From Planctomycetales bacterium (GTDB lineage: Bacteria; Planctomycetota; Phycisphaerae; SM23-33): a stretch of DNA of 27,876 nucleotides. Below the pieces are notes generated by a model. It was not told the origin of the DNA. It saw nothing but the letters and a program-made list of their open reading frames with translations, and searched no databases. Location: NCBI GenBank assembly GCA_030673005.1, contig DAOVFI010000001.1, forward strand, positions 1 through 27,876. The letters run 5' to 3'. Made by a program: the position numbers and the translations under genes. Shown in pieces: positions 5,059 through 26,810 of the stretch. Positions within the stretch are counted from its first letter, which is position 1. Each line of letters starts with the position of its first letter.

Positions 5059-5061
5059 TAT

Positions 5062-5174
5062 CTCAGACTGACCGGTTTCGTAGCACGGGCGTCTCGCCCG
5101 TGCCACGTCCTGACGTAACATCTTCTTGTAACAGGACTTACTGGAATTTGACCGGCAGAATCGGTCAGTTTGAG
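5062..5174. repeat. Inverted-repeat element enclosing a GTAG-type REP; possible bidirectional terminator between convergent genes
   Basis: CTCAGACTGACCG (5062-5074) pairs with CGGTCAGTTTGAG (5162-5174) with one G:T. Internal GTAG-CACGGGCG-TCT-CGCCCGTG at 5080-5102. Confidence 0.7.
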
Positions 5175-5193
5175 TAAATAATAGCAACGACTG

Positions 5194-5613
5194 CTACAAG
5201 AGTTCTTTTCGGATGGCTTCTGCGAGTTGTTCGATCCGGCCTTGCGGGTATGTCCCCGCCGGCCAGTTGAAGTGAAACTTATCGCCGCTGTTTCGCGGGA
5301 TGACGTGGAAATGCACGTGCGGGACGACCTGGTGTGCGACGGAACCGTTGTTCTGGAGGATATTGTAACCCTCGCATCCGAGTGCGGACCGGACGGCCCG
5401 TCCCAGCGCCGGCAGATGCCGCAGGACGGCTGCGGCTACGTCGGCGGGCATCTCATCGACGGTAACGTAATGCCCCTTCGGTATCAGCAGCGTATGTCCG
5501 TCGGCCAGTGGACCTGTGTCAAGAAAGGCAATGGATGAATCGTCTTCGAGAATTTTTACGCAGGGGATTTCGCCGGCGGCAATCTTGCAGAAAATGCAGT
5601 CGGAATCCTTCAT
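5194..5613 (-). CDS. HIT (histidine triad) family nucleotide-binding hydrolase
   Basis: DCIFCKI N-terminus, GHTLLIPK, and the HVHFHVIP triad. GGAG RBS at 5621-5624 supports ATG 5613. Confidence 0.93.
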   Translation of the reverse strand: MKDSDCIFCKIAAGEIPCVKILEDDSSIAFLDTGPLADGHTLLIPKGHYVTVDEMPADVAAAVLRHLPALGRAVRSALGCEGYNILQNNGSVAHQVVPHVHFHVIPRNSGDKFHFNWPAGTYPQGRIEQLAEAIRKELL

Positions 5614-5637
5614 GTCGGGTCTCCGGAATTGCCTAAT

Positions 5638-5719
5638 GGGCGCCGTGGCCACTGTGTTTGCGGCCACGTTTGCGTCAAGTTGCTTTATCGTGGTCGCAAA
5701 CACAGCGACCACGGCACCC
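5638..5719. repeat. Inverted REP doublet (REPIN-like)
   Basis: Two 31-bp palindromic units (5638-5668 and 5689-5719) in inverted orientation, 27/31 identical, with a 20-nt spacer. Confidence 0.8.
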
Positions 5720-5736
5720 GGCGCACGGGTGGAGGT

Positions 5737-6204
5737 TTATTTTTTCTTCTTTTTCTTCTTCTTTCCGGCGGCCTTTTCGTCGTGTTCGCCGGGTGACTGC
5801 TCGACCAATTGCAGCAGGACCTGCTTTCCGGCGTCGCCGATTCGACGCTCGGGCAGGTGGATGATGCGCGTGTATCCGCCTGGCCGGTCGGCGTAGCGCG
5901 GGGCGATCTCGTCGAAAAGTTTGCCCACGACGGTATTCTCTTCCGGCTGGTACTTCCTGGTTGTCGAATCGTATGTGTACATGTCGCGGTTCTGCAACAT
6001 GCTGATTACCCGGCGGCGCGCATGGAGAGTGCCTGTCCGGGCGATGGTAATCAAGCGCTCGACGAACGGACGCACTTCCTTTGCCTTGGCGACGGTGGTT
6101 CTGACGGCGCCGTGCTGAATGAGCGAAGCGGCGAGATTCCGCCGCATCGCCTTGCGATGCGCAGTCGTACGAGACAGTTGTTTTCCAGCAACGCGGTGAC
6201 GCAT
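5737..6204 (-). CDS. rplQ: 50S ribosomal protein L17
   Basis: MRHRVAGKQLSRTTAHRKAM, TTVAKAKE and RPGGYTRII motifs; follows rpoA. Start reassigned to ATG 6204. Confidence 0.97.
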   Translation of the reverse strand: MRHRVAGKQLSRTTAHRKAMRRNLAASLIQHGAVRTTVAKAKEVRPFVERLITIARTGTLHARRRVISMLQNRDMYTYDSTTRKYQPEENTVVGKLFDEIAPRYADRPGGYTRIIHLPERRIGDAGKQVLLQLVEQSPGEHDEKAAGKKKKKKKK

Positions 6205-6270
6205 GATTGTCCTTTTAGCGCCGGCCCTTTTCGTTGACACCCGCCCCACCACACCGGCGGGGCAAAAAAG

Positions 6271-7290
6271 TTATTCGGCGGCTACTTCCTCCTGTTCCTG
6301 TTCGGCTGACGATTCGACTTCCATACCGAGGCTCATACCCATGTCCGTCAGTTTTCGCTTGACCTCGCGGAGCGACGTCTTTCCGAATGAGTGGATTTTC
6401 AGCAGGTCGGCTTCGGTCTTGATTACCAGATCTCTGACGGTGCGGATCTTGGCGGCGTCCAGGCAGTTGTTGGACCTGACCGACAGTTCCAGTTCGTGAA
6501 TACTCATATTGAGTTTTTTCTGGAGTTCCACGTCCACTTCCGTCTCGGCGGCTGTTGTGCTGTCGATGACCGTCTCGCCCACTTCGAAGTACTGCACGAA
6601 CGGGTTGAGGTGCTTTCGCGTGATCTTGGCGGCCTCGACCATCGCCATCTCCGGCGTGACGGTCCCGTTGGTCCAGATTTCCAAAATCAGCCGGTCGTAG
6701 TTTGTTCGCTGCCCGACGCGGGTGTCTTCGGTTGTGTAGCGGACTCTGGTAACCGGCGAGAAGGCCGCGTCAACGTGAATCCGCCCGATCTCCTGGTCTT
6801 CTTCGGGATCGATCATTTCCTCAGCCGGGACGAACCCGCGCCCCGTCTGGATGACCATCTCCATATCGAATTCGACGTTGTCGGTCAGCGTCGCCAGCAC
6901 CAGATCGCGATTGACGATCTCCACTGCCGGATCCGCCTCGATCATGTCGGCGGTAACAGGTCCGGCGACGGCGCCGTGAACCTTCAGGACCTTCGGCTTC
7001 GACGAGTGCGACTTGACGATCAGGCTCTTGACGTTCAGTATGATGTCGGTAACGTCTTCCAGCACGCCCTTAATCGAGGCGAATTCATGCTCGACGCCGG
7101 CGATCATCACGCTCGTAACGGCCGCTCCTTCAAGTGAAGACAGCAGGATCCTCCGGAGAGAATTTCCCACAGTCGTACCGAAGCCCCTTTCAAACGGTTC
7201 GATAACGAACCGCCCGTAAGTGGGTGTAGAGACTTCCTGATCAGAGACAACCCGTGTTGGTAATTCCAGGCCTCGCCATCGTGCTCGCAT
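6271..7290 (-). CDS. rpoA: RNA polymerase alpha subunit
   Basis: EPFERGFGTTVGNSLRRILLSS, RVGQRTNYDRL, LELSVRSNNCL and FGKTSLRE motifs. GGAGG RBS 9 nt upstream of ATG 7290; MRARWRGLELP resembles planctomycete RpoA starts. Confidence 0.97.
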   Translation of the reverse strand: MRARWRGLELPTRVVSDQEVSTPTYGRFVIEPFERGFGTTVGNSLRRILLSSLEGAAVTSVMIAGVEHEFASIKGVLEDVTDIILNVKSLIVKSHSSKPKVLKVHGAVAGPVTADMIEADPAVEIVNRDLVLATLTDNVEFDMEMVIQTGRGFVPAEEMIDPEEDQEIGRIHVDAAFSPVTRVRYTTEDTRVGQRTNYDRLILEIWTNGTVTPEMAMVEAAKITRKHLNPFVQYFEVGETVIDSTTAAETEVDVELQKKLNMSIHELELSVRSNNCLDAAKIRTVRDLVIKTEADLLKIHSFGKTSLREVKRKLTDMGMSLGMEVESSAEQEQEEVAAE

Positions 7291-7344
7291 CGACTTTGGC
7301 CTCCGCAATTATGTTTAATTAACGCGCCGGTCCGTACCGGCAGT

Positions 7345-7977
7345 TTATCTGCTGCACAACTCGACTATCAGGTTTTCTTCCACTGGGATCAACACGTCGT
7401 CGCGGCTGGGCATTGCAAGGATGACCCCTTCCATTTTTGCCGCGTCCAGGCTCAACCAGTTCTGCACGTGCGGCTCGCCGAGTTCCTCTAGTTGCTGTTT
7501 GATTAACTTTTTAGACTTATCGGACGGCTTGACGGTAATTTTATTTCCGGCCTTCATCAGCGCCGACGCCACGCTCACCTTCCTGCCGTTGACGTACACA
7601 TGCCCGTGTGTAACGGCCTGCCTCGCCGACGCTCGCGACGGCGCAAAGCCCAGTTTGAAAACTACGTTGTCCAGGCGGCGCTCCAGCAGGCTCAACAGGG
7701 CTGCGCCGGTGTTGGCCTTCTGCCTTTCGGCCATCTTGAAATACCGCATGAACTGCTTCTCATAGACGCCGTAGTACCGCTTGACTTTCTGCTTTTCACG
7801 CAGGCGGATGCCGTATTCGCTGCTGCGCCTTCTGCGCCAACTGTGCGCACCGGGCGGGAAATTCCGCCACTGGCGCTCCAGCGGGCACTTGGCTGTCTCG
7901 CACCGCGCGCCCTTGAGCATCAGTTTAATGCCTTCGCGCCGGCAAAGCCTGCAGGATGGTCCTGTATTACGACCCAT
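7345..7977 (-). CDS. rpsD: 30S ribosomal protein S4 (cysteine-containing, Zn-binding form)
   Basis: CRLCRREG...RCETAKC, SEYGIRLREKQK and LERRLDNVV motifs. Confidence 0.97.
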   Translation of the reverse strand: MGRNTGPSCRLCRREGIKLMLKGARCETAKCPLERQWRNFPPGAHSWRRRRSSEYGIRLREKQKVKRYYGVYEKQFMRYFKMAERQKANTGAALLSLLERRLDNVVFKLGFAPSRASARQAVTHGHVYVNGRKVSVASALMKAGNKITVKPSDKSKKLIKQQLEELGEPHVQNWLSLDAAKMEGVILAMPSRDDVLIPVEENLIVELCSR

Positions 7978-8014
7978 CTTCGCCGCTCAACTCCTTCCTG
8001 GTAAAAACACTTAT

Positions 8015-8050
8015 TAATCGGTAATCAGTAATCGGTATTCCGGTATCCGG
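8015..8050. repeat. Degenerate heptamer tandem repeat (TAATCGG-like, 5 units)
   Basis: taatcgg taatcag taatcgg tattccgg tatccgg in the rpsK-rpsD gap. Confidence 0.7.
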
Positions 8051-8055
8051 TATTT

Positions 8056-8433
8056 TTACACTCTTCGTTTCTTTCTCGGTCGGCAGCCGTTGTGCGGGAC
8101 GGGTGTAACGTCCTCGATTGTCGAAATTCGCAATCCTGCACTTTGCAGCGCGGTTACGGCGCCTTCCCTGCCCGATCCCGGTCCGTTGACACGCACTTCG
8201 ACTTCCGTAACGCCCATTTTCTTTGCCCGGTATGCAGCGTTTTCCGACGCCCGCTGCGCGGCGAACGGCGTGCTCTTTCGAGCGCCCTTGAATCCGACGT
8301 TACCGGCCGACGACGAGCAAAGCACGTTGCCGTTCGAGTCGGTAATCGTTATCAGTGTATTGTTGAACGTCGCCTTGACGTGCACAATCGCCTTGGCGCC
8401 GGTCCGTTTGGCTTTTTTCCGCGGAGCGGCCAT
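8056..8433 (-). CDS. rpsK: 30S ribosomal protein S11
   Basis: [27 protein letters not shown] and [12 protein letters not shown] motifs. Confidence 0.98.
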
Positions 8434-8434
8434 A

Positions 8435-8818
8435 TTATCTCATCTCCTTGACGGACTTCTTTCCTGCAACGGTTTTGCGCGGACCTTTGCGGGTTCTCGC
8501 GTTCGTCTTGGTCCGCTGCCCTCGCACCGGCAGGCCGCGACGGTGACGCAGCCCGCGATAACACTTTATATCACGCAGGCGGGCGATGTGCTGCTGAGTC
8601 TGCCGGCGCAACTGACCCTCGATGACAAAGTCAGCCTCAAGGATCGTAGCGATCTTGCTGAGTTGATCTTCGGTCAGGTCGCCGGCCTTGGTCTGCGGGT
8701 CAAACTCCGCCTTCCGGCAGATGTCCATCGCCAGTTTAGGCCCAATACCGTATATATACCGCAGCGCAATAAATGACGGCTTGTCGTTGGGTACGTCGAT
8801 ACCAACAATTCGCGGCAT
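8435..8818 (-). CDS. rpsM: 30S ribosomal protein S13
   Basis: [16 protein letters not shown] and [26 protein letters not shown] motifs. Confidence 0.98.
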
Positions 8819-8851
8819 CTTTTTCTCCCTGTGGCCGAGACGCCTCGACCT

Positions 8852-8965
8852 TTATCCCTGTCGCTGTTTATGTTTGGGGTTCGTGCAGATCACACGCACC
8901 ACGCCCTTCCGCCGGACTATCCGGCAGTTTTCACAGCGCCGTTTTACCGAAGTTCTCACCTTCAT
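8852..8965 (-). CDS. rpmJ: 50S ribosomal protein L36 (Zn-ribbon form); absent from the supplied ORF track
   Basis: Manual translation gives [45 protein letters not shown] upstream. Confidence 0.97.
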
Positions 8966-9006
8966 GATTACACCTGACTGTAAGCGGATTTCCGCCACAG
9001 AGACTT

Positions 9007-9020
9007 ACCTGCCGGCAGGT
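9007..9020. repeat. Perfect 14-bp palindrome ACCTGCCGGCAGGT, related to the CCTGCC repeats at 12477-12528
   Basis: Reads identically on both strands; lies in the map-rpmJ gap. Confidence 0.6.
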
Positions 9021-9039
9021 CTCCGCCGCCCATTCTGTT

Positions 9040-9813
9040 TTAGCTTCCGTTTGTCAGCACGCTGATCCCGTCGGCGGTTACCGCCATTGTGTGCTCAAAG
9101 TGTGCCGACGGCTTTCCGTCTTTAGTTACGACGGTCCATCCGTCCTCTTCCACAAGCACTTCGTGCGAGCCCATAGTCACCATCGGCTCGACGGCCAGGA
9201 CCAATCCTTCTTCCAGCAGTATGTCGCGCTTCAGCAGGTCCCGACTGACGAAGTTGGGAACCTTCGGGTCTTCGTGCATCTGGCGACCGATTCCGTGCCC
9301 GACGAACTCCCGGACGACGGAAAAACCCTGGTTTTCAACGTATTTCTGCATTTGTCGTACTACCGCCGACCACATCATGCCCGCCGCCGATTCTTCAATG
9401 GCAATTTCCAGCATTCGCCGCGTTGCCGAGACAAGTCGCCTGACTTGCGGGTCTGTCCGTCCGGCAATGAACGTCGCAGCCGCATCGCCGCAGTACCCTT
9501 CCAGCCGGCAGCCGTAGTCGATACTCACCAGGTCGCCGTCTCGGATAATGCGATCCGACGGTATCCCGTGGACTACCTGCTCGTTTATCGAGGCGCAGAT
9601 GGTTCCGGGAAACGGTCCGCCTCTGCCCGGAACGCCCTTGAAAAGGGCCTCGGCGCCCAACTGCTGCGTCAGTCTCTCGGCCTCTGCGTCCAGATCACCT
9701 GTCGTGACACCCGGAGCAACCATCTCACCCAGACGCGAGAGAACCCGACTGACGACCCTGCCTGCCTGCCGGATCAATTCTATCTCGCGAGGGGATTTCA
9801 ACTTTATCGCCAC
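9040..9813 (-). CDS. map: Methionine aminopeptidase type I
   Basis: VVHGIP, D-x-G...YCGD, GHGIGRQMHEDP, AVEPM and SAHFEHT metal-binding motifs; GTG start. Confidence 0.97.
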   Translation of the reverse strand: MAIKLKSPREIELIRQAGRVVSRVLSRLGEMVAPGVTTGDLDAEAERLTQQLGAEALFKGVPGRGGPFPGTICASINEQVVHGIPSDRIIRDGDLVSIDYGCRLEGYCGDAAATFIAGRTDPQVRRLVSATRRMLEIAIEESAAGMMWSAVVRQMQKYVENQGFSVVREFVGHGIGRQMHEDPKVPNFVSRDLLKRDILLEEGLVLAVEPMVTMGSHEVLVEEDGWTVVTKDGKPSAHFEHTMAVTADGISVLTNGS

Positions 9814-9861
9814 GCTAATCTCTATCCTTTATCCTAATCGTCAGAACCGGCTCTGCGCGAC

Positions 9862-10554
9862 CTAACTACCCGCCCGCAGCGCTTCGGCGGCCTGTTGAGC
9901 CACCTCTTCCAACGGCGAGCCGCCGTCGAGAGTGATTATCTTCCGCCCATCGGCGGTATAATAGTCGATCACCGGCTCTGTCTGTTTGCGATAGGCGTCC
10001 AGTCTCTGCCGGACCACTTCTTCGGTATCGTCTGCCCGCTGGGCAAGTTCGCTCCCGCAGGCGTCGCAGACGCCTTCTTTCGCCGGCGGTATGTTTTTTA
10101 CGTGATAGACCGCGCCGCATTTCGGGCACGATCGCCTGCCCGTTATACGATCCACCAGCAGCGATTCGTCCGCTGCGATGATCAACACCGCTCCGAGCGG
10201 AAGGCCCATCTTTTCCAGCTGCTCGTCCAGCGCCCGCGCCTGGGCGACCGTCCTGGGAAATCCGTCCAGAAGCAGCCCTTTCTCGGTATCCTGTTTCGCT
10301 ATAGCGCCGGCCATGATATCCACGACGATCTCGTCGGGCACCAGTTCGCCGGCGTCCATGTATTTTTTCAGTTTCTCGCCCAGTTCGCTGCCGCCGGTGC
10401 GTTCGGCGCGGAGGATATCGCCGCTGGACAGATGAATCATGCCGAATTTCTCGACCAGGCGTTTTGCCTGTGTTCCCTTTCCTGCGCCCGGCGGACCCAT
10501 TAGAACCACTCTTTTGATTGCGGATTGCGGATTGTGGATTGCGGATTTCATCAT
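9862..10554 (-). CDS. adk: Adenylate kinase (four-Cys Zn-lid type) with a repeat-derived N-terminal insert
   Basis: GPPGAGKGTQA P-loop, HLSSGDILR, LLDGFPRT, lid CPKC...CDAC. Start is ATG 10554 or 10551. Confidence 0.96.
   Translation of the reverse strand: MMKSAIHNPQSAIKRVVLMGPPGAGKGTQAKRLVEKFGMIHLSSGDILRAERTGGSELGEKLKKYMDAGELVPDEIVVDIMAGAIAKQDTEKGLLLDGFPRTVAQARALDEQLEKMGLPLGAVLIIAADESLLVDRITGRRSCPKCGAVYHVKNIPPAKEGVCDACGSELAQRADDTEEVVRQRLDAYRKQTEPVIDYYTADGRKIITLDGGSPLEEVAQQAAEALRAGS
10516..10548. repeat. Heptamer tandem repeat (GATTGCG)n / (CGCAATC)n inside the 5' end of adk
   Basis: gattgcg gattgcg gattgtg gattgcg gattt. Confidence 0.85.
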
Positions 10555-10586
10555 TATCTTGCTCGATACGGATATATCACATTATA

Positions 10587-10613
10587 AATTCGTGTAATTC
10601 GTGTAATCTGTGG
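10587..10613. repeat. Nonamer tandem repeat, 3 units
   Basis: aattcgtgt aattcgtgt aatctgtgg in the secY-adk gap. Confidence 0.7.
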
Positions 10614-10623
10614 ACTCGTTTTA

Positions 10624-12396
10624 TTATCCTCGTGCTCCCTTTATCCGCCCGCCGCCGCTGAGGAAGCCGCCGTAATTCCGCATGATAAGTTCGGCCTCGA
10701 TCCTCTGAACCACGTCCAGCGCCACCGAGACCATGATCAGCAGTCCCGTCCCGCCGAGGTAGGCGGCAATGTTAAAGGGGATTCCCATATTGGCCGCCAC
10801 TACCTGCGGAATGACGGCGATAAGCGCAAGAAACGCCGCTCCGCAGTAGGTAATACGCTCCATTACCCGTTCGAGATAATCGGCGGTGCGTTTTCCGGGC
10901 CTCAGTCCCGGAATAAACGAGCCGTTGTCGCGCAACTGGTCGGACATATCCTTGGGGCGGAACTGCACCGTCGTCCAGAAATATGCGAAGAAGAAAATCA
11001 TTCCCACATAGACCAGTTGATAAACCAGGTCGTTCATGTTGAACGCCTTGCCCAGGAAGGCGGCGAACCAGTTGTTCGGCCAGGCGCCGGCGATCCAGTT
11101 GGCCGGGGCATTGAAGAACATCATCAGCGAAGAGGCGAAGATGATCGGCATGACTCCGCCGTGATTAACACGCAGGGGCAGGTACTGCCTCTGCCCGCCG
11201 TACACCCGCCGACCCCGGGTGTGCTTTGCCTGCTGGACGGGTATTCGCCGCTGGGCCTGGGTGATGAGAATGGAACCGGCCACAACGAACACGAACGCGG
11301 CGATCAGGAAAATTATCTTGATCATCCCGATGTCGTCGCCGCCTGCGCCGGTAACCTTCAGCGACGCCCGCGAAATAAGTTCACGGATCGCCCACGGCAT
11401 CCGGGCGACAATGCCGGCCATGATTATCAGACTGATGCCGTTACCGACGCCGTATTCGTCTATCTGCTCGCCCAGCCACATAAGGAACATTGTTCCCGCC
11501 GTCAGGCCGAAGATCGCCATCAGAAAAACGCCTATAGAATCGGCGTACTGCGGGTACAGGTTCGTGTACTTCGGATTCATCACGAACTTGTATATCCCTA
11601 TCGCCTGTACTATGCACAAAACCACGGTCGCGTAGCGGGTGTATTCCTGTATCTTCTTGTAACCGGCCTGTCCTTCCTTCTGGAGTTTCTCCAGCGCCGG
11701 GACGACGGTAACGAGTAACTGGAAGATAATCGAAGCGGAGATATAGGGCATTATGCCCAGTCCGAACAGGGTGCACTTCTGGAGGTTGCCGCCGGTGAAC
11801 ATGGCGAAATATTCCATCGCCTGCCCCAGCGGACCGCCCGACTGTCTCTGCATGAAGCCGCTGAGGGCCTCCTGGTTCAGCCCGGGCAGGGGGATGTGGA
11901 AACCGATCCGGTAAATGCACAGCAGCGCCAGCGTAAAGGCGACCTTCTTGAGCAGGTCGGGCACCGAGAAGATGTTTTCCAGGACGCGCCTGATGGAGGT
12001 CCTTGCCGCGACCAGGAAGCCAAACACCGCCACGACCGCTACGGCCAGGACAAGATTGACAATCGGTTCACCTATTCCGGCGGCCCCGAAGGTTCCAGCC
12101 TTCAGCGATTCATAAAGCCCTACCGCGCCGGTCGCCAGGAAATAGTACACGATCATGCCGGCCAGAACGCCCAGGATGACCCGGAAGCCGTTGAAAGGAT
12201 TGTCCTGCCTGAAGAAAGCGTAGTAATACGCCGCCAGTGTCGCCAGCGAGCCGAGGATCATACCCACAGGCAGGATAAGTCCACGCAGGTCGCCGGCAGC
12301 AGCCGATAACATGGGAACGGCCCAGACTACTACCAGTATCGCCGCAACGACCACCAACGCGAGACCGAAGATCAATCTGATTGCTCTGAAAACCAT
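10624..12396 (-). CDS. secY: Preprotein translocase SecY with a ~133-aa N-terminal membrane extension
   Basis: LGIMPYISASIIFQLL, WLGEQIDEYGVGNGISLII, YLPLRVN, FIPGLRPG and GGTGLLIMVSVALD motifs. The canonical start region (IFSVPDLLKKVAFTL) lies near residue 140 of a continuous 590-aa ORF. Confidence 0.95.
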   Translation of the reverse strand: MVFRAIRLIFGLALVVVAAILVVVWAVPMLSAAAGDLRGLILPVGMILGSLATLAAYYYAFFRQDNPFNGFRVILGVLAGMIVYYFLATGAVGLYESLKAGTFGAAGIGEPIVNLVLAVAVVAVFGFLVAARTSIRRVLENIFSVPDLLKKVAFTLALLCIYRIGFHIPLPGLNQEALSGFMQRQSGGPLGQAMEYFAMFTGGNLQKCTLFGLGIMPYISASIIFQLLVTVVPALEKLQKEGQAGYKKIQEYTRYATVVLCIVQAIGIYKFVMNPKYTNLYPQYADSIGVFLMAIFGLTAGTMFLMWLGEQIDEYGVGNGISLIIMAGIVARMPWAIRELISRASLKVTGAGGDDIGMIKIIFLIAAFVFVVAGSILITQAQRRIPVQQAKHTRGRRVYGGQRQYLPLRVNHGGVMPIIFASSLMMFFNAPANWIAGAWPNNWFAAFLGKAFNMNDLVYQLVYVGMIFFFAYFWTTVQFRPKDMSDQLRDNGSFIPGLRPGKRTADYLERVMERITYCGAAFLALIAVIPQVVAANMGIPFNIAAYLGGTGLLIMVSVALDVVQRIEAELIMRNYGGFLSGGGRIKGARG

Positions 12397-12410
12397 TATT
12401 ATTTCGTTTC

Positions 12411-12430
12411 AAGCCCGGAAAGGGCTTTTT
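12411..12430 (+). terminator. Short hairpin plus T-tract in the antisense orientation, just upstream of secY
   Basis: AAGCCC-GGAAA-GGGCTT-TTT. The U-tract is on the plus strand, so it would only terminate antisense transcripts. Confidence 0.35.
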
Positions 12431-12470
12431 CACATACGTCTCTTGTAAAACCGCGCCACTTGCCGCGTGT

Positions 12471-12538
12471 GGTGTGCCTGCCTATCGGCAGACAGGCAGG
12501 AAAAAGAACCTGCCTACCGGCAGGCAGGCCTGCACACC
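12471..12538. repeat. Pair of CCTGCCTAYCGGCAGRCAGG palindromic repeats inside a GGTGTGC/GCACACC inverted repeat
   Basis: Copies at 12477-12496 and 12509-12528; flanking 7-bp IR at 12471-12477 and 12532-12538. Confidence 0.75.
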
Positions 12539-12545
12539 CTACCTG

Positions 12546-12992: not shown

Positions 12993-13078
12993 TACAATTT
13001 CACATCCATCGAATCTGTCGGGACGGGTTTTCCAGGCCGGGGATTATCATTCAACGGTCCGGACACCCGCGGCGCCGA

Positions 13079-13606: not shown

Positions 13607-13645
13607 AATATCTGCTCCATGAGTCTATGCTATGTGTTTGTGCGC

Positions 13646-13668
13646 CACAGGTTACAAACCTGCGCCAC
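13646..13668 (-). repeat. Single REP of the GTRG-CACAGGTT-TGT-AACCTGTG family
   Basis: Minus strand reads GTGG-CGCAGGTT-TGT-AACCTGTG, 4 nt after the rplR stop. Confidence 0.85.
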
Positions 13669-13672
13669 CGTA

Positions 13673-14041: not shown

Positions 14042-14136
14042 TATACTTACTCATCCAGCCACGACGAATGGAACGGACTCCTGAGATTATGTTCGGTCCG
14101 CTTTCGGAGCAACACAGTCCCCAAGGGACTGCACCA

Positions 14137-14233
14137 CCCATCGTTACACAGGTTACAAACCTGTGCTACCCATCGTTACACAGGTTACAAACCTGTGCTA
14201 CCCGTCGTTACACAGGTTACAAACCTGTGCCAC
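14137..14233 (-). repeat. Three tandem 32-bp units, each containing a GTAG/GTGG-tagged REP
   Basis: CCCRTCGTTA-CACAGGTT-ACA-AACCTGTG-CYA at 14137, 14169 and 14201; no spacers between units. Confidence 0.92.
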
Positions 14234-14236
14234 TTT

Positions 14237-14815: not shown

Positions 14816-14886
14816 TTTGAATCACATTCCAACGTGCTCGATATCCCGACTCGCCTGCCGGAGAGTCGTATCGGGACCGGATAAAA

Positions 14887-15300: not shown

Positions 15301-15313
15301 ATTCGTCTGCGCC

Positions 15314-15499: not shown

Positions 15500-15600
15500 T
15501 ATTCCGTCCTGTTTCACGCCTTATTCATCGCTACGGTATTTCCGGCTGAATTCCACCGGAGGCCGCCTCGCCGGGACTGCGCCGGCGGATCCGTGGCGGC

Positions 15601-16164: not shown

Positions 16165-16170
16165 AATAAA

Positions 16171-16509: not shown

Positions 16510-16582
16510 TATCTTATCCTGCGCCCCGGTGGCAACACTGCTCGCAATCGGGCTTCTGCCACCAGCTGCCGCTCACCCGTCG

Positions 16583-16969: not shown

Positions 16970-16993
16970 TTAATCACTTCTAATCCGTCTTTT

Positions 16994-17335: not shown

Positions 17336-17371
17336 CAGTTTAATGCCTTATCTGTCTGTCAGTACGGCCCG

Positions 17372-18009: not shown

Positions 18010-18012
18010 TTA

Positions 18013-19044
18013 TTAGTCCTTCTTTTCCTCGGTTCCGGAGGTTTCAGGAGACTGAACCGCACTGCCGGTTTCCTGCCGTCCCGTGTCAACCTCGCCCTGT
18101 TGCTGCTTAGTCGTCGAATCCGCCGGTTTTTCCTGTTTTTCCGCGACCGGTCCGGCGCCCTTCCGGTCGGCGGTATCCGCCGGAGCGGATTTTGTTGAAG
18201 CGGTTTTTACCGGAGCAGATTTACCGCGCCTTGCGCCGCCGCGCGCCGGCGCGCCGCCGCCTTTTTGCTGCCTTGGGCCGCCGCGGCTTTGCTGCCTTGC
18301 GCCGCCGCCTCTTTGCTGCCTTTGGCCGCCTCCGCCTCGTCGGGCGTGTCCGCCCGGACCGCCCCGTCCGGTCGGCGCCGAAGAGCGACTTTCGACCTGC
18401 TCAACTTCGCCGAACAGGCCGCGATATATCCAGACCTTCACGCCCAGCGCGCCGTAGGTCGCGAAACATTCGGCGAAGCCGTAATCCACGTCGGCGTCCA
18501 GCGTATGCAGCGGGATCGAGCCCATGATCTGCTTGACCTTCCGGCTCATCTCCGCACCACCCAGCCGGCCTGAAACCTCAATCTTCACGCCCTTGGCACC
18601 GGCCTGCATTATCATCTCGCACCGCTGCTTGATAGAACGCCGGAAACTCGCCCGCCGCTTCAGTTGTTCAGCCACCGACCCTGCCGCCAGCTGCGCGTCC
18701 AGGTCCGGCTTGGAAATCTCCATGACGTTGACGTTCACGCGCCTGTCGGAGAGGTCTTCCAGTGCGTCCTTGAGTTTCTCTACTTCTGCGCCCCTGGGTC
18801 CGATGACCAGTCCCGGCCTGGCGGTCCGCAGCGTTACCTTGACCTCCTCGCGGGTCCGCTCGATCTCTATTCTGCTTATGCCTGCATAAGGCGGCTGGCG
18901 GTTCAGGCGGTTCTCGATGAACTCCCTGATCTTCCAGTCCTCTACCAGGAACTCGCCGTAGTTGCTCTTGGGCGCAAACCACCGGCTCGCCCACCCGCGG
19001 GTGATGCCCGTCCTGAAACCAATTGGCGAAACTTTCTGACCCAT
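18013..19044 (-). CDS. rpsC: 30S ribosomal protein S3 with a ~130-aa low-complexity C-terminal tail
   Basis: MGQKVSPIGFR, ARPGLVIG, SGRLGGAEM and GVKVWIY motifs. Confidence 0.97.
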   Translation of the reverse strand: MGQKVSPIGFRTGITRGWASRWFAPKSNYGEFLVEDWKIREFIENRLNRQPPYAGISRIEIERTREEVKVTLRTARPGLVIGPRGAEVEKLKDALEDLSDRRVNVNVMEISKPDLDAQLAAGSVAEQLKRRASFRRSIKQRCEMIMQAGAKGVKIEVSGRLGGAEMSRKVKQIMGSIPLHTLDADVDYGFAECFATYGALGVKVWIYRGLFGEVEQVESRSSAPTGRGGPGGHARRGGGGQRQQRGGGARQQSRGGPRQQKGGGAPARGGARRGKSAPVKTASTKSAPADTADRKGAGPVAEKQEKPADSTTKQQQGEVDTGRQETGSAVQSPETSGTEEKKD

Positions 19045-19091
19045 AATCCTTTTCCGATTTCTCCGGTTGCGCCGGAGTTTTTTAAAAACCC

Positions 19092-19433: not shown

Positions 19434-19512
19434 CAGTGTCTATTGCTCCACAATCAAATCACGTCTGCGGCGGGTGGCGCGGTCTCCCTGCCGCCCGTCG
19501 TCGTCTTTCAAT

Positions 19513-19782
19513 CTATTTCCGCCTGGCGAGTGTGTGGCTTCGGAACGTCCGCGTCGGGCTGAACTCGCCCAGTTTATGTCCCACCATATCCTCGGTAACG
19601 AAGACGGAGTTGAATATCTTACCGTTGTGGACGCTGAAAGTATGCCCGACGAATTCCGGGACGACCGTACAGGTCCTCGCCCAGGTCTTGATCGGCTCGC
19701 GCGAGCCGGACTGTTTCTGTTGCTGGACCTTGCGAAAGAGTTTTTCATCCACGTACGGGCCTTTTTTCAGGCTTCTTGCCAT
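19513..19782 (-). CDS. rpsS: 30S ribosomal protein S19
   Basis: [17 protein letters not shown] and [13 protein letters not shown] motifs; start reassigned to ATG 19782. Confidence 0.97.
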
Positions 19783-19845
19783 TTCTCGCTCTCTTGTCAT
19801 GCCACGTCGGGCAGGACCGTCATTAACCTTCTGCTATCGTTCAGG

Positions 19846-20697: not shown

Positions 20698-20789
20698 TGG
20701 TTACTCGCCCGTTTTCTGCCGGGACGTCCGTTTTTACCCAATACTATTCTATCTTTACTTCAATCGTAACTATTCACGCAATTGCAATA

Positions 20790-20964
20790 AATGCAGAAGA
20801 AAAGAGCAAGTCAGGCACACGAAATGAAAAAATAATTCATCTTCTGGAATTGTTTTTTCATTTCTCCGTCGCCTCTTACGTCCGCGCAGGGGTAGTATTT
20901 ATCACTCCAAACAGACGGAGTGATAAATACTATGTGTGCCTGACTTGCTCTTTTCTTCTGCATT
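20790..20964. mobile_element. 175-bp MITE-like element with 31-bp perfect terminal inverted repeats and two internal hairpins
   Basis: TIRs at 20790-20820 and 20934-20964. Internal stems: 20821-20838/20847-20864 (17/18 plus one G:T) and 20893-20908/20917-20932 (16/16). No coding capacity. Mobility is inferred only. Confidence 0.65.
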
Positions 20965-20984
20965 ATGCTGAACTCTTACCTTTT

Positions 20985-21269
20985 CTAAAACAGGTCAATA
21001 TGATAGTCCGGGTGCAGTACTACGACCGCCTTTTTCCAGTGACTGGTCGTGCCCATCTTGTATCCTACCCTTCGCGGCTTGCCCCGGCGATTGGCCGAGC
21101 GAACCTTCAGGACCTTGACGCTGTAGATCTTCTCAACGGCCTGCTTGATCTGCGCCTTGTTCGCTTCCGGGTGAACCTGGAAGGCATAAGCATTCCGCGT
21201 CTGCGACTGATGCGTGCCCTTCTCGGTCACCAGTGGTCGGACTATCGTGTTGTAAATATCGTTTTTCAT
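20985..21269 (-). CDS. rplW: 50S ribosomal protein L23
   Basis: RPLVTEK, ANKAQIKQAVEKIYSVKV and WKKAVV motifs. Confidence 0.97.
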   Translation of the reverse strand: MKNDIYNTIVRPLVTEKGTHQSQTRNAYAFQVHPEANKAQIKQAVEKIYSVKVLKVRSANRRGKPRRVGYKMGTTSHWKKAVVVLHPDYHIDLF

Positions 21270-21271
21270 AT

Positions 21272-21946
21272 CTATGCCGGCGCCTCAGCGTCCGACTTTG
21301 CATCCGCTTCTGCGACCGCCTTTTCGTCTGTCCGGTCCAGCAGCCTTTCCATCGCCTCGCGGGTCAGGAGCATTTTCTGCCGGGTGGCGACCTCAAATGC
21401 GTTCAGATCGTCCACCGGACGGACGGTAATATCCGGTATATTTCTTGCGCTCCTGTAGAGCGTCTCATCCAGCCCTGCCGGCACCAGCAGGCAGGAACGG
21501 TTTATCTTCAATTTCGCCATGACATCTGCTACGAACTTCGTCTTCGGCTCCTCAAGGCTCATCCCATCGACTACAAGCAGGTTCTGCCCGAGGATCTTGG
21601 CGAGGATTGCCGAATTCAGCGCCCCTCGTCGCATTTTTTTCGGAAGGGTTTTTCGGAAACTGTGCGGTGTTTTTGCGAAGGTCATTCCACCGCCGCGCAC
21701 CTTACCGGTCCGTATCGGACCCCGCCGGGCGTTTCCGGTTCCCTTCTGCTTGAAGATTTTCCGTGTAGAGCCTGCGACCTGTCCGCGTCCCTTTGTGGCG
21801 GCGCTTCCCTGCCGGCGGTTGGCGTGATAGGCGACGATCGCCTGCTTCAGCAGTGCGACGTTGACGGTCTTGCCGAAACGCTCATCGTCGATCTTCAGCG
21901 TCTCGACCTGCTCGCCGGCCGTGTTGTAAACGTTAACTTCCAGCAT
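21272..21946 (-). CDS. rplD: 50S ribosomal protein L4
   Basis: RQGSAATKGR, KQKGTGNARRG, RGGG and LPKKMRR motifs. Confidence 0.97.
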   Translation of the reverse strand: MLEVNVYNTAGEQVETLKIDDERFGKTVNVALLKQAIVAYHANRRQGSAATKGRGQVAGSTRKIFKQKGTGNARRGPIRTGKVRGGGMTFAKTPHSFRKTLPKKMRRGALNSAILAKILGQNLLVVDGMSLEEPKTKFVADVMAKLKINRSCLLVPAGLDETLYRSARNIPDITVRPVDDLNAFEVATRQKMLLTREAMERLLDRTDEKAVAEADAKSDAEAPA

Positions 21947-21955
21947 CTCTTATCG

Positions 21956-22024
21956 GTGGCACGGGTCTTCAACCTGTGCCCTCTCAACATTCCTGTAACA
22001 GCACAGGTTACAAACCTGTGCCAC
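21956..22024. repeat. Inverted REP doublet of the CACAGGTT family at the rplC-rplD junction
   Basis: Plus-strand GTGG-CACGGGTC-TTC-AACCTGTG (21956-21978) and minus-strand GTGG-CACAGGTT-TGT-AACCTGTG (22024-22002), with a 23-nt spacer. Confidence 0.8.
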
Positions 22025-22691
22025 CCGAACTTATTTTACTTTTTGCAGTGCGGGACTTCCTGACGAACAGATACCCGCCGTTGGGTCCGGGCAGCGATCC
22101 TTTTATCAGCAGCAGGTTGTTTTCTGCGTCGATGCCCACCAGTCGATGATTTCTGCTGGTAGAGCGTTCCGAGCCCATGTGCCCCGCCATTTTTTTGCCT
22201 TTTTTGATGTTTCCGCCGTGCCCCAGGTCGGTTCCGTGCCCGCCGATGGAACCCGGGCTGCGGTGCTTTCGCTCGACGCCGTGGCTTGCCGGCTGACCCT
22301 TGAAGCCGTGGCGCTTGACGCCACCGGCGAAACCCTTGCCTTTGGTGGTTCCGATGACGTCCACGAATTTAATGTCCTGGAACAACTCGACTGTCATGGT
22401 TGAACCGACTTCAACGTCGGCGTTCTGATCATCAAGGCGGATTTCCCGGACGATCTTTTTCGGTTCGGTCTTCGCCCGCTCGGCATGTCCGATCGCCGGT
22501 TTTGCGGCTCGTGCGATTTTTACATCCTCGAAGCCGATCTGGACGGCGTCGTAACCGTCCTTTCCGTCGATATTCTTGACCTGAAGAACCACGCACGGTC
22601 CGGCGCGCACGACGGTTACCGGGCAGACGGCGCCTTCTTCGGCGAATATCTGCGTCATCCCGATCTTTTTTCCAATCAACGCCGGATACAT
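22008..22691 (-). CDS. rplC: 50S ribosomal protein L3
   Basis: [38 protein letters not shown] and [10 protein letters not shown] motifs. The stop codon lies inside a REP. Confidence 0.97.
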
Positions 22692-22788
22692 CCGTACACT
22701 TTCACTCTATTCAAGGTTGCCGGCCGGTGCAGACTTGACCATAATCAAAAAGGCACGAGCCTGAAAATCCGCGCCGCCATTACCTGCT

Positions 22789-23097
22789 CTACGCCTTTAT
22801 CTTCACGAACACACCCGCCGGGACAACCAGCCGGTTCAATGCCTCGATCGTACGGACCGTCGGTTCGTAGATGTCGATGATCCGCTTGTGCGTTCGCATC
22901 TCAAACTGCTCGCGTGATTTCTTGTCCACGTGCGGGCTTCGCAACACCGTGTAGCGCTCGATCCGCGTCGGAAGTGGAATAGGCCCGCTAACACGGGCGC
23001 CCGTCCTGCGGGCATGTTCAACGATCTCACCGGCCGAGCTGTCAAGCGCCCGGTGGTCGTAGGCTTCCATTCGTATTCGAATCTTTTCCTGCAACAT
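22789..23097 (-). CDS. rpsJ: 30S ribosomal protein S10
   Basis: [22 protein letters not shown] and [20 protein letters not shown] motifs. GGAGAG RBS 8 nt upstream of ATG 23097. Confidence 0.98.
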
Positions 23098-23159
23098 GTG
23101 CGTTACTCTCCGACCTGCAATCCTGGGATTTTCAGGCAGACAAGTTACAAAGCCTTTCC

Positions 23160-23187
23160 AGTATATAAGATCATTTATATCTGTCAA
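23160..23187 (-). promoter_or_regulatory. Sigma70-type promoter for the S10/spc cluster
   Basis: TTGACA (23187-23182), 16-nt spacer, TATACT (23165-23160), in an AT-rich gap upstream of rpsJ. Confidence 0.75.
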
Positions 23188-23291
23188 TTATTGAAACAGA
23201 TATTTTCAAGATTTTTTTCTCGCAGGCATAGACACCCGAAGGCTTCGGGCATAAACGCACAACCGGTCCGGCTGTCGGGCTGTACGTTCTG

Positions 23292-25397
23292 TCAGGTCAG
23301 TTTCCCCGCCACATCGGCCGGAACGACCTTGTAGGTCATCGGTTCCATCACGTACGTGCCCCGCCCCTGTGTCAGCGACCGCAGGATGGTGGCGTATCCG
23401 AACATTTCCGCCAGCGGCGCTTCGGCAATGAGTTTACAGTAATTTTTGCGGTGTTCCATAGTGGTGATTTCCGTCCTGCGCGAGTTCAGGTCGCCGGTAA
23501 CGGCGCCGAGGTTGTTCTCCGGTACGCTTACCTCCAGGCGCATAATCGGTTCGAGAAAGACCGGCGTGGCGTTTTTGACCGCCGCGGCGAACGCCATCGC
23601 CCCGGCGCGGGAAAAGGCCAGTTCCGAGGAATCCACCGGATGATGCTTTCCGTCCAACAGCGTAACCGTAATTCCGGTCATGGAATACCCGCCCAGCGGA
23701 CCGCTGGTGGCCTCGTCTGTTACTCCCTGCTTGACGGCGGAGATGTACTCCTTCGGGATCGCCCCGCCGATTATTTTATTGATGAAGATTACGGGCGATT
23801 CGTCGTCGCCGGTTTCCGCGCGGGTCGCCGCCGATGTCGGCTCGATCTTCAGCACGACCACGCCGTACTGCCCGCGCCCGCCGGTCTGGCGAATGAATCG
23901 GCCTTCGGCTTCGGTAACGGCGGTGATCGTTTCCCTGTAGGCTACACGCGGCGTCCCGACCCGGACCGAAACGCCCATGTCGCGCATCAGTTTGTTCTTG
24001 ATAATCTCCAGGTGCAGTTCTCCCATCCCCGAAATCAGCAGCTGCCCGGTCTCGCGGTCCATTTCGGTCCGGAAGGTCGGGTCTTCCCGACGGAGCGTCG
24101 CAAGGGCGTCGGCGAGGCGGTCTTTCTCGGCGGCGGACGCCGGCTCGATCGACATGGAAATCACCGGCTTGGCGAACTTTATTTTCTCCAGGATTATCGG
24201 ATGGTGTGAATCGCACAGCGTGTCGCCGGTGAGACTCGCCTTAGGCCCTACGACGGCGACAATATCGCCTGCATCGGCCCGGTCGCGACGGATACGCTGC
24301 TTGGCGTGCATCTCCCAAATACGAGAGACAATCTCCTTCTTCTGCCGGATGGGGTTGAAGACGCGCGTGCCGGCCTTTACCGAGCCGCTGTAAATGCGGA
24401 GATAATAAAGGTCTCCGTGCAGGTCGGCGGCGATCTTGAACACCAGGGCCGAGAACGACTCGTCGGGATCTGCCGTTCGCTCGACAAGGCGTTCCGGCTG
24501 CCCGTCATGGGTGTGCGATCCTGACCCTTCGATCCCCCTGACGGCCGGGACGTCCAGCGGGGAAGGCAGATAGTCGCATATCGCGTCCAGAAGGACCCGG
24601 ACGCCCATGTTTTTCAGCGCCGAGCCGCACAGGACAGGATGAATCCGGTCGGCGACGACCGCCCGGCGAATCGCCGATTTGATGTCCGCCGCTGAAATCG
24701 GTTCCTCGTGAACGTATTTATCCATCAACTCATCGTCTGCTTCTGCGACGGACTCGATCATGTCGTGACGGGCGATCTCGACGGCGTCGGCGTATTCGGG
24801 CGGAATATCGCCGACCTTCAGTTCCATCGCTATCTCCGCCGATTCGTAGAACATCGCCCGCTGCTCGATAAGGTCGATCTGCCCGCGGTAGTCGCCGCCG
24901 GCGCCCATCGGCAACTGGATCGCCACCGGCGTTGCCCCCAGGCGGTCGCGAATCTCGCCCAGAACCATCTCGAAATCCGCGCCGAGACGGTCCATCTTGT
25001 TGATGAAGCACAGTCGCGGTACGTTGTATCGGCTGGCCTGGTTCCAGACGGTTTCACTCTGGGCCTCAACCCCGCCGACGGCGCAGAAGACCGCCACAGC
25101 GCCGTCAAGGACTCGCAGCGACCGCTCCACCTCGATTGTGAAATCGACGTGCCCGGGAGTGTCGATAAGGTTGACGGTGTAATCTTTCCATGACAGTGTC
25201 GTAGCAGCCGAGGTGATGGTGATTCCCCGCGCCTGTTCCTCAACCAGGTAGTCCATTACCGCAGTACCGTCGTGAACCTCGCCTATCTTGTAACTCTTTC
25301 CGGAAAAGTACAGAATCCGCTCGGTTACGGTGGTCTTTCCCGCGTCGATGTGGGCGGCGATGCCTATGTTCCGAATTAGTTGTAGTTTTTTTGCCAT
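23292..25397 (-). CDS. fusA: Elongation factor G
   Basis: [47 protein letters not shown] and VDSSELAF motifs; 701 aa. Confidence 0.98.
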
Positions 25398-25481
25398 GCC
25401 TGAAACACTCAGTCGTCAGTGACTGTACATCCGTACTGAATCCGCCAGAAGGCTCGCAGTCGGCCGATTTACATAAGCGAA

Positions 25482-25509
25482 GAGACCGCAGCGGTTTCTC
25501 TGCGGTCTC
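25482..25509 (-). terminator. 10-bp perfect hairpin after rpsG (weak terminator or processing/stability element)
   Basis: GAGACCGCAG (25482-25491) pairs with CTGCGGTCTC (25500-25509) around an 8-nt loop. Only a weak U-run (TTCGCTT) follows on the minus strand. Confidence 0.4.
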
Positions 25510-25528
25510 CGGTGGGTCGTATCGTTGT

Positions 25529-26005
25529 TTATCGAGCGAAGTGAGCGAAGGCCTTGTTCGCGTCGGCCATTCGGTGAATGTTTTCGCGCGTTGTCATCGC
25601 GGCGCCTTCCTTTCGGTAGGCGTTCATCAATTCCGACGCCAGTCGCTGCGAGGTCGGCGAACCGCTGCCGGCGCGGACCGCCTGGAGAAGCCATCGTATC
25701 GCCAGCGACAGGCGGCGCTTCTGGTTGACCTGCATGGGGACCTGGTAATTAGCCCCGCCGACGCGCTTGGAGCGAACCTCAACCATGGGTTTGAGGTTGT
25801 CTATCGCCTGTTCGAAGACTTCCAGAGGTTGGGCGTCTTTGATCTTTTCGGCGACGACGTCCATCGCGTCGTAGAATATCCGTCGGGCGGTGCTTTTCTT
25901 TCCGTCCCACATCAGGCAGTTGACGAACTTGCTGACCAGTTTGCTTTTGTATCGCGGGTCGGGCGCAAGTTGCTTGGCCGATGCTGTCCACTTCTTATAC
26001 GCCAT
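25529..26005 (-). CDS. rpsG: 30S ribosomal protein S7
   Basis: [28 protein letters not shown] and [13 protein letters not shown] motifs. Start reassigned to ATG 26005, just after the rpsL stop. Confidence 0.97.
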
Positions 26006-26006
26006 C

Positions 26007-26378
26007 TTATTTGCCCTTCTTTGCGCCGTAGAGGCTGCGTCCCTGTCGGCGTCCTTCCACACCGGCCGTATCCAGTGCGCCGCGGATGACGTGATACCTC
26101 ACGCCGGGTAAGTCCCGCACACGCCCGCCGCGAACCAGGACGATGCTGTGCTCCTGGAGGTTGTGATCGACGCCCGGAATATAGGCCGTTACTTCCTTAC
26201 CGTTGCTAAGCCGCACGCGCGCGACCTTTCGCAGGGCGGAGTTCGGCTTTTTGGGCGTCATCGTCTTTACAAGCACGCAGACGCCGCGCTTCTGCGGACA
26301 CCGCTCCAGCGCCACATTCTTCCTCTTGGCCACCTGCTTGCGCCGCGGCTTTCGGACCAGTTGATTAATTGTCGGCAT
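26007..26378 (-). CDS. rpsL: 30S ribosomal protein S12
   Basis: [34 protein letters not shown] and DLPGVRYH motifs. Confidence 0.98.
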
Positions 26379-26429
26379 ACCTTGTTTTTCCTCTCTGGAT
26401 AACTCTACCAGATACTGTCCTTTAATCCA

Positions 26430-26458
26430 ATTATAATCTTTAATGTCTAATATTACAA
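26430..26458 (-). promoter_or_regulatory. Sigma70-type promoter for the str operon
   Basis: TTGTAA (26458-26453), 17-nt spacer, TATAAT (26435-26430), about 50 nt upstream of the rpsL ATG. Confidence 0.72.
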
Positions 26459-26523
26459 CGCCACTTTGTATTGGCCGGCATATATGATGCCTTATGAGAA
26501 CATCTCCTATGCTACCGGCAAAG

Positions 26524-26608
26524 GCTGTCAGCCGTCAGCATTCAGCAGTCAGCAACCAACTTCGACAATCTGCCTTTGGCTGATTGCTGACCGCTGAATG
26601 CTGACAGC
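26524..26608. repeat. Inverted heptamer arrays (NNTCAGC)4 / (GCTGANN)4
   Basis: gc-tgtcagc-cgtcagc-attcagc-agtcagc (26524-26553) and gctgatt-gctgacc-gctgaat-gctgaca-gc (26579-26608). Confidence 0.85.
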
Positions 26609-26682
26609 GACGCATTATGTTGCAGCATCTGTGTCCATAATCGCTTATAGATATTCACGCAATATCAAGTGGCGTAGTAGTA

Positions 26683-26805
26683 CTAATGACTAATGTCTAA
26701 TAACCGACCGGACGCTCTTCGGAATCATCAACTTGATACCCATTATTTTCAGTCATTGGACATTAGACATTACTTAGACATTGGTAATTAGACATTAGTC
26801 ATTTA
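26683..26805. repeat. Inverted heptamer arrays (CTAATGW)n / (WCATTRG)n
   Basis: Three units at 26683-26703 and about seven degenerate units at 26753-26805. Perfect 17-bp IR at 26685-26701/26787-26803. Confidence 0.85.
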
Positions 26806-26810
26806 TTTTT

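Follow-up and report, generated by a model that had tools for sequence, protein, structure and literature searches.

Repetitive extragenic palindromic (REP) sequences tagged with GTAG or CGTC occur in more than 80 species from 8 phyla, among them the Planctomycetes, and are found mainly between unidirectional and convergent open reading frames (ORFs) (Di Nocera, De Gregorio & Rocco 2013, PMC3733652). Between unidirectional ORFs they adjoin the 3′ end of the upstream ORF, at a varying distance from the downstream one; between convergent ORFs they lie less than 20 bp from both, and the GTAG terminus often supplies the stop codon (PMC3733652). We analysed the repeats that follow stop codons in the ribosomal-protein (r-protein) superoperon of a Planctomycetales bacterium, using a 27,876-nt stretch of contig DAOVFI010000001.1 (assembly GCA_030673005.1; hereafter the window) and the remainder of the genome. 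Their position is probably best explained by a recent burst of GT[A/G]G-tagged REPs and REP doublets forming hairpins (REPINs), of a family of miniature inverted-repeat transposable elements (MITEs) and of heptamer arrays, filtered by selection such that the DNA just past stop codons is the landing zone that is tolerated. The REPIN concept reportedly goes back to Bertels and Rainey in 2011.

The repeats resemble the GTAG REP/REPIN super-family in being short G+C-rich stem-loops with GT[A/G]G on one side, present in hundreds of mostly extragenic copies that belong to several families and frequently form inverted doublets, in a genome with genes for REP-associated tyrosine transposases (RAYTs). 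Unidirectional and convergent gaps and the 3′ end of the upstream ORF are likewise favoured, and the tag is sometimes the TAG stop codon. Unlike the GTAG REPs described, most families here (B, G, A and O) carry GTGG, the host is an uncultured Phycisphaerae-like planctomycete, and divergent gaps are only about twofold depleted. The stop-side placement is a bias already described for REPs elsewhere, seen here in a new host, and not a new principle. In Escherichia coli K-12, which is REP-rich, the S10, spc, alpha and str junctions mostly measure 3–33 nt, the exceptions being a few longer spacers at promoters or between operons, and no repeat features are annotated there, whereas here repeats have entered the r-protein superoperon.

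REPs less than 16 nt past a stop codon in E. coli are reported to stall terminating ribosomes and lower translation (Liang, Rudd & Deutscher 2015, as summarized in PMC12306157). A hairpin less than 16 nt past the stop is present at eight window junctions (after rplF, rplR, rpsK, rplO, rplW, rplC, secY and rpoC), a likeness of sequence geometry to the REPs in that summary; strong stalling behind highly expressed r-protein genes would be costly here. The element at 20766–20980 is comparable to bacterial MITEs such as Correia/NEMIS, ERIC and RUP. It has perfect 31-bp terminal inverted repeats (TIRs) that bound a multicopy non-coding element, internal hairpins and about 50–100 family copies (90–110 high-scoring segment pairs, HSPs, for the TIR and core pieces), and it is co-transcribed within an operon. 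Unlike those systems, its family does not hug stop codons genome-wide (5 vs 4).

Placement of repeats after stop codons

The earlier note had listed short distances from stop codons to repeat elements across the window, and our remeasurement agreed with them to within 1–4 nt: flavodoxin 3 nt (3 claimed), rplF 2 (3), rplR 3 (4), rpsK 3–5 (5), rpoC 7 (7), secY 8–10 (10), rplQ 14–17 (17), HIT 15 (19), map 10–16 (19) and rpsG 18 (19). For rplO the distance was 3 nt to the GTAG tag and 7 nt to the stem (7), for rplW it was 20 nt to the TIR (20) and only 4 nt to the end of the family homology, and a REP overlapped the rplC stop, as had been described. In the longer gaps the elements were also said mostly to adjoin the upstream stop and to leave the next ribosome-binding site free. 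The element was closer to the stop than to the following start in 10 of 10 co-directional junctions (p = 0.002); the freedom of the ribosome-binding site has one exception, the element at 21956–21981, which ends 8 nt before the rplD start. Compared with uniform placement, Fisher's test gave p = 0.003 for the window, and this rose to p = 0.045 when the 20 nt before starts were excluded, so that the window alone is only marginal. Several of its gaps offer less than 25 nt of free placement.

When the transcribed strand was folded as RNA, a hairpin domain began 0–12 nt past the stop in nearly all window gaps of at least 25 nt, including gaps beyond the earlier list (after rpsD, rpmJ, rpsE, rpsH, rplE, rplN, rpsS, rpsJ and fusA). 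Predicted stabilities ranged from −15 to −110 kcal/mol; these are minimum free energy folds of short segments, in which the outer pairs are not base-exact.

The window is one contig of a fragmented metagenome-assembled genome (MAG; 3.32 Mb, 789 contigs, 58% GC, 87% completeness), and the repeat load itself may explain the fragmentation. Genes were predicted with a finder built here, a three-periodic fourth-order Markov model trained on long ORFs, with starts chosen by coding score, codon and Shine–Dalgarno (SD) sequence. It yielded 2,864 genes at 83% coding density and recovered all window genes except the 37-aa rpmJ. A 13-mer repeat map was too noisy within coding DNA; repeats were identified by iterative k-mer seeding and consensus extension, and the resulting 40 consensus sequences were mapped by blastn-short. 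This gave 4,291 HSPs in 2,187 blocks covering about 71 kb, with 386 HSPs (9%) mostly within predicted genes and the rest predominantly extragenic.

Of the 1,613 co-directional gaps, 556 (35%) held repeats, as did 111 of the 221 convergent (50%) and 95 of the 243 divergent ones (39%). When scaled to the amount of free intergenic DNA, occupied divergent gaps were half as frequent as the others (1.15 vs 2.5–2.6 per kb). Different families were mixed in 192 of the 556 occupied co-directional gaps, and clustering of the repeat intervals by shared 16-mers produced one giant cluster, as families nest and adjoin. In the superoperon, 6 of 32 junctions were occupied by strict and about 10 by lenient counting, about equal to or lower than the genome-wide 35%. 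Occupancy also varied with the non-repeat sequence in co-directional gaps: 8 of 382 gaps with less than 20 nt of it were occupied, and 43–50% of those with at least 40 nt.

The median distance from the stop to the first repeat base in the 556 occupied co-directional gaps was 21.5 nt. From the last repeat base to the start it was 54 nt, or 41 nt when the most upstream possible start was used, a choice that works against the stop-hugging hypothesis. Elements were nearer to the stop in 362 gaps and nearer to the start in 187 (sign test, p = 7 × 10⁻¹⁴), and in 215 of the 556 (39%) the stop was overlapped by an element or followed by one at less than 15 nt. The earlier note had cautioned that short gaps make part of the pattern trivial, and most of the signal was indeed gone once gap length and start exclusion were modelled. 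The genome-wide comparison with a random-placement null that it had proposed nevertheless left an excess that survived this modelling, persisted in gaps with more than 150 nt of residual space and held when the analysis was restricted to gaps between high-scoring genes. There was no mirror excess at the start-side boundary, and the histogram of relative positions after start exclusion was flat except for the first quintile. Elements in convergent gaps, where there are no starts, were a median of 10 nt from the nearer stop, and those in divergent gaps a median of 76 nt from the nearer start. Together, the start-excluded, convergent and divergent statistics point to strong avoidance of the DNA before starts combined with modest attraction to, or retention at, stops.

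Repeat families and their occurrence in relatives

The families had been described as unrelated, a view that we could not sustain. Families A, B, D, E, G and O are short imperfect palindromes (about 20–40 bp) that form stem-loops, as seen in consensus sequences and RNA folds, and in 83–100% of loci GT[A/G]G flanks one side of the stem only. Their sequences are CACAGGTT..AACCTGTG for B, GGTGTGCAGG..CCTGCACACC for D, GCCGGGAC..GTCCCGGC for E and CACGGTCAAG for the arms of A. The tag is GTAG in 119 of 119 cases in E and about 69 times for 68 loci in D. GTGG, a one-base variant of the canonical GTAG tag, is found in 359 of 388 arms in A and in 54 of 57 cases in G; the counts are 163 GTGG and 10 GTAG of 180 in B, and 24 GTGG and 5 GTAG of 30 in O. 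Doublets with the tags outward were frequent in B (91 of 173), E (38 of 119) and D (24 of 69), no doublet had its tags inward, and G and O were mostly single.

Five matches to Y1 transposases were detected in the genome, and two of these exceeded the cut-off of NCBIfam NF047646 (REP-associated tyrosine transposase) with 162 and 101 bits. One RAYT ORF (C449:1529–2158) has L-family palindromes on both flanks and the other (C142:2556–3212) is followed on its 3′ side by a GTAG-tagged hairpin. Given the one-sided GT[A/G]G tag, the outward doublets and the two RAYT-class transposases, traits that define GTAG-type REP/REPINs, we place the tagged families in a single REP super-family, probably mobilised by a common mechanism. 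As a caution, a tag and a mobilisation system can be common to families whose sequences seem unrelated.

A further ORF of 226 aa (G000:C305:3849–4529, minus strand, the same as L003:1441–2121) combines a LexA-like N-terminal DNA-binding domain (residues 17–86) with an IS200/IS605-type Y1 domain (109–218) and has A-family, C-family and F20 repeats beside it.

The preference for stops differed between families. In gaps occupied by a single family, the median distance from the stop was 0–14 nt for E, B, D, C together with D, H, N, I and F32, and there was no significant stop preference for A, C alone, G, J, K or the 31-bp-TIR MITE. The stop-hugging rule is therefore not universal across families. 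No family showed an orientation bias relative to transcription. Tagged units that lie no more than 30 nt from a stop are tag-first in about 94% of cases, but the tag equally faces the nearest start (33 vs 3; 7 vs 1) and doublets always have their tags outward, so we attribute this pattern to element geometry and dropped a rule of mRNA polarity for the tag. In 9 units of family E the last three bases of the tag, TAG, serve as the stop codon of the gene. The stop codon as a precise insertion target was rejected, as the spacers between stop and tag measure 0–14 nt and have no common sequence. An intrinsic terminator reading was rejected as well: 31 terminator-like sites were found compared with 24.2 ± 5.1 in shuffles, and the sole match on the transcribed strand was the inner loop of the rplO element.

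The superoperon was compared with five relatives from the same family but other genera. All five have the same gene order, HIT included, and the same junctions measure 2–40 nt overall. Individual gaps in the relatives and in the window were 8–32 vs 287 nt for rplW>rplB, 10–84 vs 432 nt for rpoC>rpsL, 17–76 vs 195 nt for rplF>rplR, 15–37 vs 149 nt for rplO>secY, overlapping vs 69 nt for secY>adk and −4 vs 86 nt for rpsE>rplO. The insertions were absent at the matching junctions in 5 of 5 relatives. Family A arms matched 423 times here, 21 times in the nearest relative and 0–3 times elsewhere, which is the level of control patterns; family B matched 169 times here, 18 and 7 times in two genera, and not at all in 22 others. 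A scan of one metagenome for presence or absence of the insertions returned only relatives at ≤53% identity. Because the gaps of the relatives are tight and copies are few or lacking, the invasion is judged to be recent and lineage-specific, and not a conserved regulatory layer.

Two relatives have expanded junctions of their own, for example at rpsG>fusA (383–471 nt in G014 and G016) and at rpsQ>rplN (102 nt in G016), which may hold other repeat families.

Elements and genes of the window

Repeat elements and hairpins of the window are collected in the table. A BLAST search of the gaps against the genome put copy numbers at 26 to about 200 for the elements that follow secY, rplO, rplR, rplF, rplW and rplC, for the G-family REP in the flavodoxin/HIT gap and for the element upstream of ilvD. 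The rplQ doublet was below the threshold of that search, and its family consensus has 88 HSPs. Elements that follow rpsK, map and rpoC had few genome matches, as did the outer arms in the flavodoxin/HIT gap. No Rfam family matched in the window at gathering thresholds.

Table. Repeat elements and strong hairpins in the window (ΔG, predicted folding free energy in kcal/mol)
Position	Strand	Element	Location	ΔG	Remarks
2455–2572	+	A-family REPIN-like, GGTGGCACGGTCAAG arms	mid-gap, 58 nt from orfB stop and 55 nt from ilvD start		example of a family without stop-hugging
5062–5178	.	composite	convergent gap of flavodoxin (stop 5056–5058, +) and HIT (stop 5194–5196, −)		low-copy outer inverted arms 5062–5074 and 5166–5178 around GTAG-tagged G-family REP 5079–5105
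5638–5722	−	N-family REPIN-like doublet, two 31-nt arms	14–17 nt past rplQ stop, about 24 nt before likely HIT start 5613	~−69	
8016–8052	−	heptamer-like tandem array	3–5 nt past rpsK stop		low-copy, 3–4 genome matches
8994–9029	−	hairpin with CCTGCCGGCAGG core	10–16 nt past map stop, upstream of rpmJ	−22	
10587–10616	−	H-family ACGAATT heptamer array	8–10 nt past secY stop		
12471–12542	−	nested palindromes D (GTAG-tagged GGTGTGCAGG) and C (CCTGCCGGTAGGCAGG)	tag starts 3 nt past rplO stop	~−56	
13646–13669	−	single B-family REP	3 nt past rplR stop		GTGG tag first on mRNA
14144–14234	−	three head-to-tail B-family REPs, 32-nt period	from 2 nt past rplF stop		
20766–20980	−	MITE-like, perfect 31-bp TIRs 20790–20820 and 20934–20964	family homology stops 4 nt from rplW stop	~−109	
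21956–21981	−	B-like variant REP	ends 8 nt before rplD start		26 genome copies; tag toward rplD
21999–22027	−	B-family REP	across rplC stop (22008–22010)		
25482–25510	−	strong hairpin	18 nt past rpsG stop		unique, 0 other genome matches
26531–26803	−	two long inverted repeats, 26531–26558/26581–26608 and 26685–26705/26783–26803	432-nt rpoC>rpsL gap, outer one from 7 nt past rpoC stop		low-copy, heptamer-like

The B-family REP across the rplC stop encodes the last 8 residues of L3 (ISSGGTGL) and the stop codon (22008–22033 region). The end of L3 differs in 5 of 5 relatives, where 0–6 residues follow the conserved KS(K/R)TA(K/R) motif.

Five junctions of 71–86 nt here correspond to −4 to 17 nt in most relatives: rpsE>rplO (12993–13078), rplN>rplX (16510–16582), rplE>rpsN (15518–15600), rpsH>rplF (14816–14886) and rpsS>rplV (19434–19512). 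They form hairpins, match no high-copy family and are probably decayed or unique REP-like insertions. The rplE>rpsN spacer holds a partial E-family half (GCGCAGTCCCGGC), and the rplN>rplX spacer ends in GGTGGCA...TGCCACC.

The superoperon is read on the minus strand from 27875 to 5194, in the order rpoC, rpsL, rpsG, fusA, rpsJ, rplC, rplD, rplW, rplB, rpsS, rplV, rpsC, rplP, rpmC, rpsQ, rplN, rplX, rplE, rpsN, rpsH, rplF, rplR, rpsE, rplO, secY, adk, map, rpmJ, rpsM, rpsK, rpsD, rpoA, rplQ and HIT. Thirty genes were identified by Pfam, rpmJ (8852–8965) from its translation, and nine by gene order together with tblastn homologues in the same order in the relatives. The rpsS gene was corrected to 19513–19800 (not 19440–19748). 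The HIT start lies well downstream of the start of the longest ORF, with the domain beginning at residue 47. The relatives of RpoA are Planctomycetota/Phycisphaerae MAGs throughout.

Several genes have unusual ends or extensions. RpsC is 343 aa long (18013–18400 region) and relatives align to residues 1–213/235 only; the extra C-terminal ~110–130 aa hold 24-nt tandem repeats (18251–18338). SecY (590 aa) has an N-terminal extension (11998–12396) that is common to some relatives only, since alignments begin at residue 1–4 in G014 and G001 and at residue 68–111 in G015, G006 and G016. A heptamer array of the GCAATCC type (I family, ~83 HSPs genome-wide) lies at 10514–10554 within the first 12–14 codons of adk, and the adk alignments with 5 of 5 relatives begin at residue 13–15; either adk has gained these codons or its true start is further downstream. 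Outside the superoperon, positions 1–2396 hold two neighbouring paralogous ORFs (369+ and 429 aa) with no Pfam match, in which stretches of DNA are 74–82% identical at a constant offset of 1,307–1,313 nt.

Origin of the stop-side placement

Of the two explanations offered in the earlier note, the one that fits best is that the DNA after stop codons is the only tolerated landing zone. The GT[A/G]G-tagged REP/REPIN families, the TIR-bounded MITE family and the heptamer arrays would have burst recently in this Phycisphaerae-like lineage, with the REP families presumably moved by the RAYT-type Y1 transposases of the genome, and would have landed in the DNA between genes, also at junctions of the rpoC-str-S10-spc-alpha superoperon. 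Selection would then remove insertions in the 20–40 nt before starts, where the SD sequence or standby site lies, or in promoter and 5′ untranslated DNA. The stretch right after a stop would carry no such signal, so insertion would be tolerated and copies would persist there. This filter and the short gaps would yield most of the positional rule, and better retention may account for the leftover 1.25–1.5-fold enrichment on the stop side. Co-transcribed copies would form stable RNA hairpins 0–20 nt past stops; effects of the elements on mRNA decay or on terminating ribosomes are suggested by analogy with E. coli.

Several observations weigh against selection-filtered landing as the whole explanation. 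With uniform placement and 20, 40 or 60 nt before starts excluded, elements less than 10–20 nt past the stop were 1.23–1.52 times as frequent as expected (z 2.8–3.8). In convergent gaps the elements lean to one stop (mean min-fraction 0.217 vs 0.25, p = 0.017). The fraction of copies within 15 nt of a stop increases with divergence, from 0.30 among consensus-identical copies to 0.37 and then 0.43 among the most diverged (Spearman p = 0.006). The residual excess, the convergent lean and the divergence trend could reflect positive retention for a function of the RNA or a preference in insertion. The divergence trend favours differential retention over insertion preference, with family composition as a confounder. 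In addition, the RAYT genes are flanked by L-family palindromes or a GTAG-tagged hairpin and their link to families B, D and E is presumed, and start-side distances carry error from the simple gene finder, which the conservative definition of starts limits.

The other explanation offered was a regulatory layer that tunes r-protein stoichiometry. By analogy with E. coli, post-stop hairpins might be kept as a block to 3′ exonucleases, a processing site or a ribosome stall, and might set the levels of superoperon segments. The stable hairpins predicted 0–12 nt past the stop in nearly all window gaps of at least 30 nt would suit such a layer, as would the residual stop-side excess and the closer position of older copies; in 39% of the occupied co-directional gaps an element lies at less than 15 nt, within the range reported to lower translation in E. 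coli (PMC12306157). We nevertheless consider it unlikely. The insertions are absent in five relatives, which manage with gaps of 2–40 nt, the families (A and B among them) are a recent burst, and occupancy of the superoperon roughly equals or falls below that of the genome as a whole. Stop-hugging is absent from several families, and the lack of orientation bias and of terminator features likewise leaves the tuning of stoichiometry without support.

Also unlikely, and ranking after it, is a preference of the transposition machinery for the 3′ ends of genes, for example for existing hairpins or exposed single-stranded DNA, such that the bias would precede selection. Different families share gaps and are nested there, as in the 192 mixed gaps and the giant k-mer cluster, the lean to one stop in convergent gaps is not explicable by avoidance of starts, and the 9 E-family units with TAG as the stop are like those reported for GTAG REPs (PMC3733652). 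However, the stop-to-tag spacers are variable in length and sequence, copies identical to the consensus, presumably the youngest, lie near stops least often, and neither the MITE family nor family A is biased. Less probable again, and likewise an analogy with E. coli, is that REP hairpins 0–15 nt past stops have been co-opted as mRNA stabilisers or ribosome brakes that reset expression of the superoperon; if so, the extra retention on the stop side and the drift of older copies towards stops would be its signature. Short gaps alone are a most improbable cause, because the marginal window result and the gaps with less than 25 nt of free choice are outweighed by the genome-wide sign test and by an excess that persists with more than 150 nt of residual space and with exclusion of up to 60 nt (z ~3).

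Selection-filtered landing would make stop-hugging mainly a by-product of intergenic tolerance, with a small surplus left over. What is notable is the density of the burst and its reach into the ribosomal superoperon, which adds a case with good quantification for a phylum that has received little study. REP/REPIN bursts can spread to about one-third of gene junctions, with no obvious exclusion from the most highly expressed operon.

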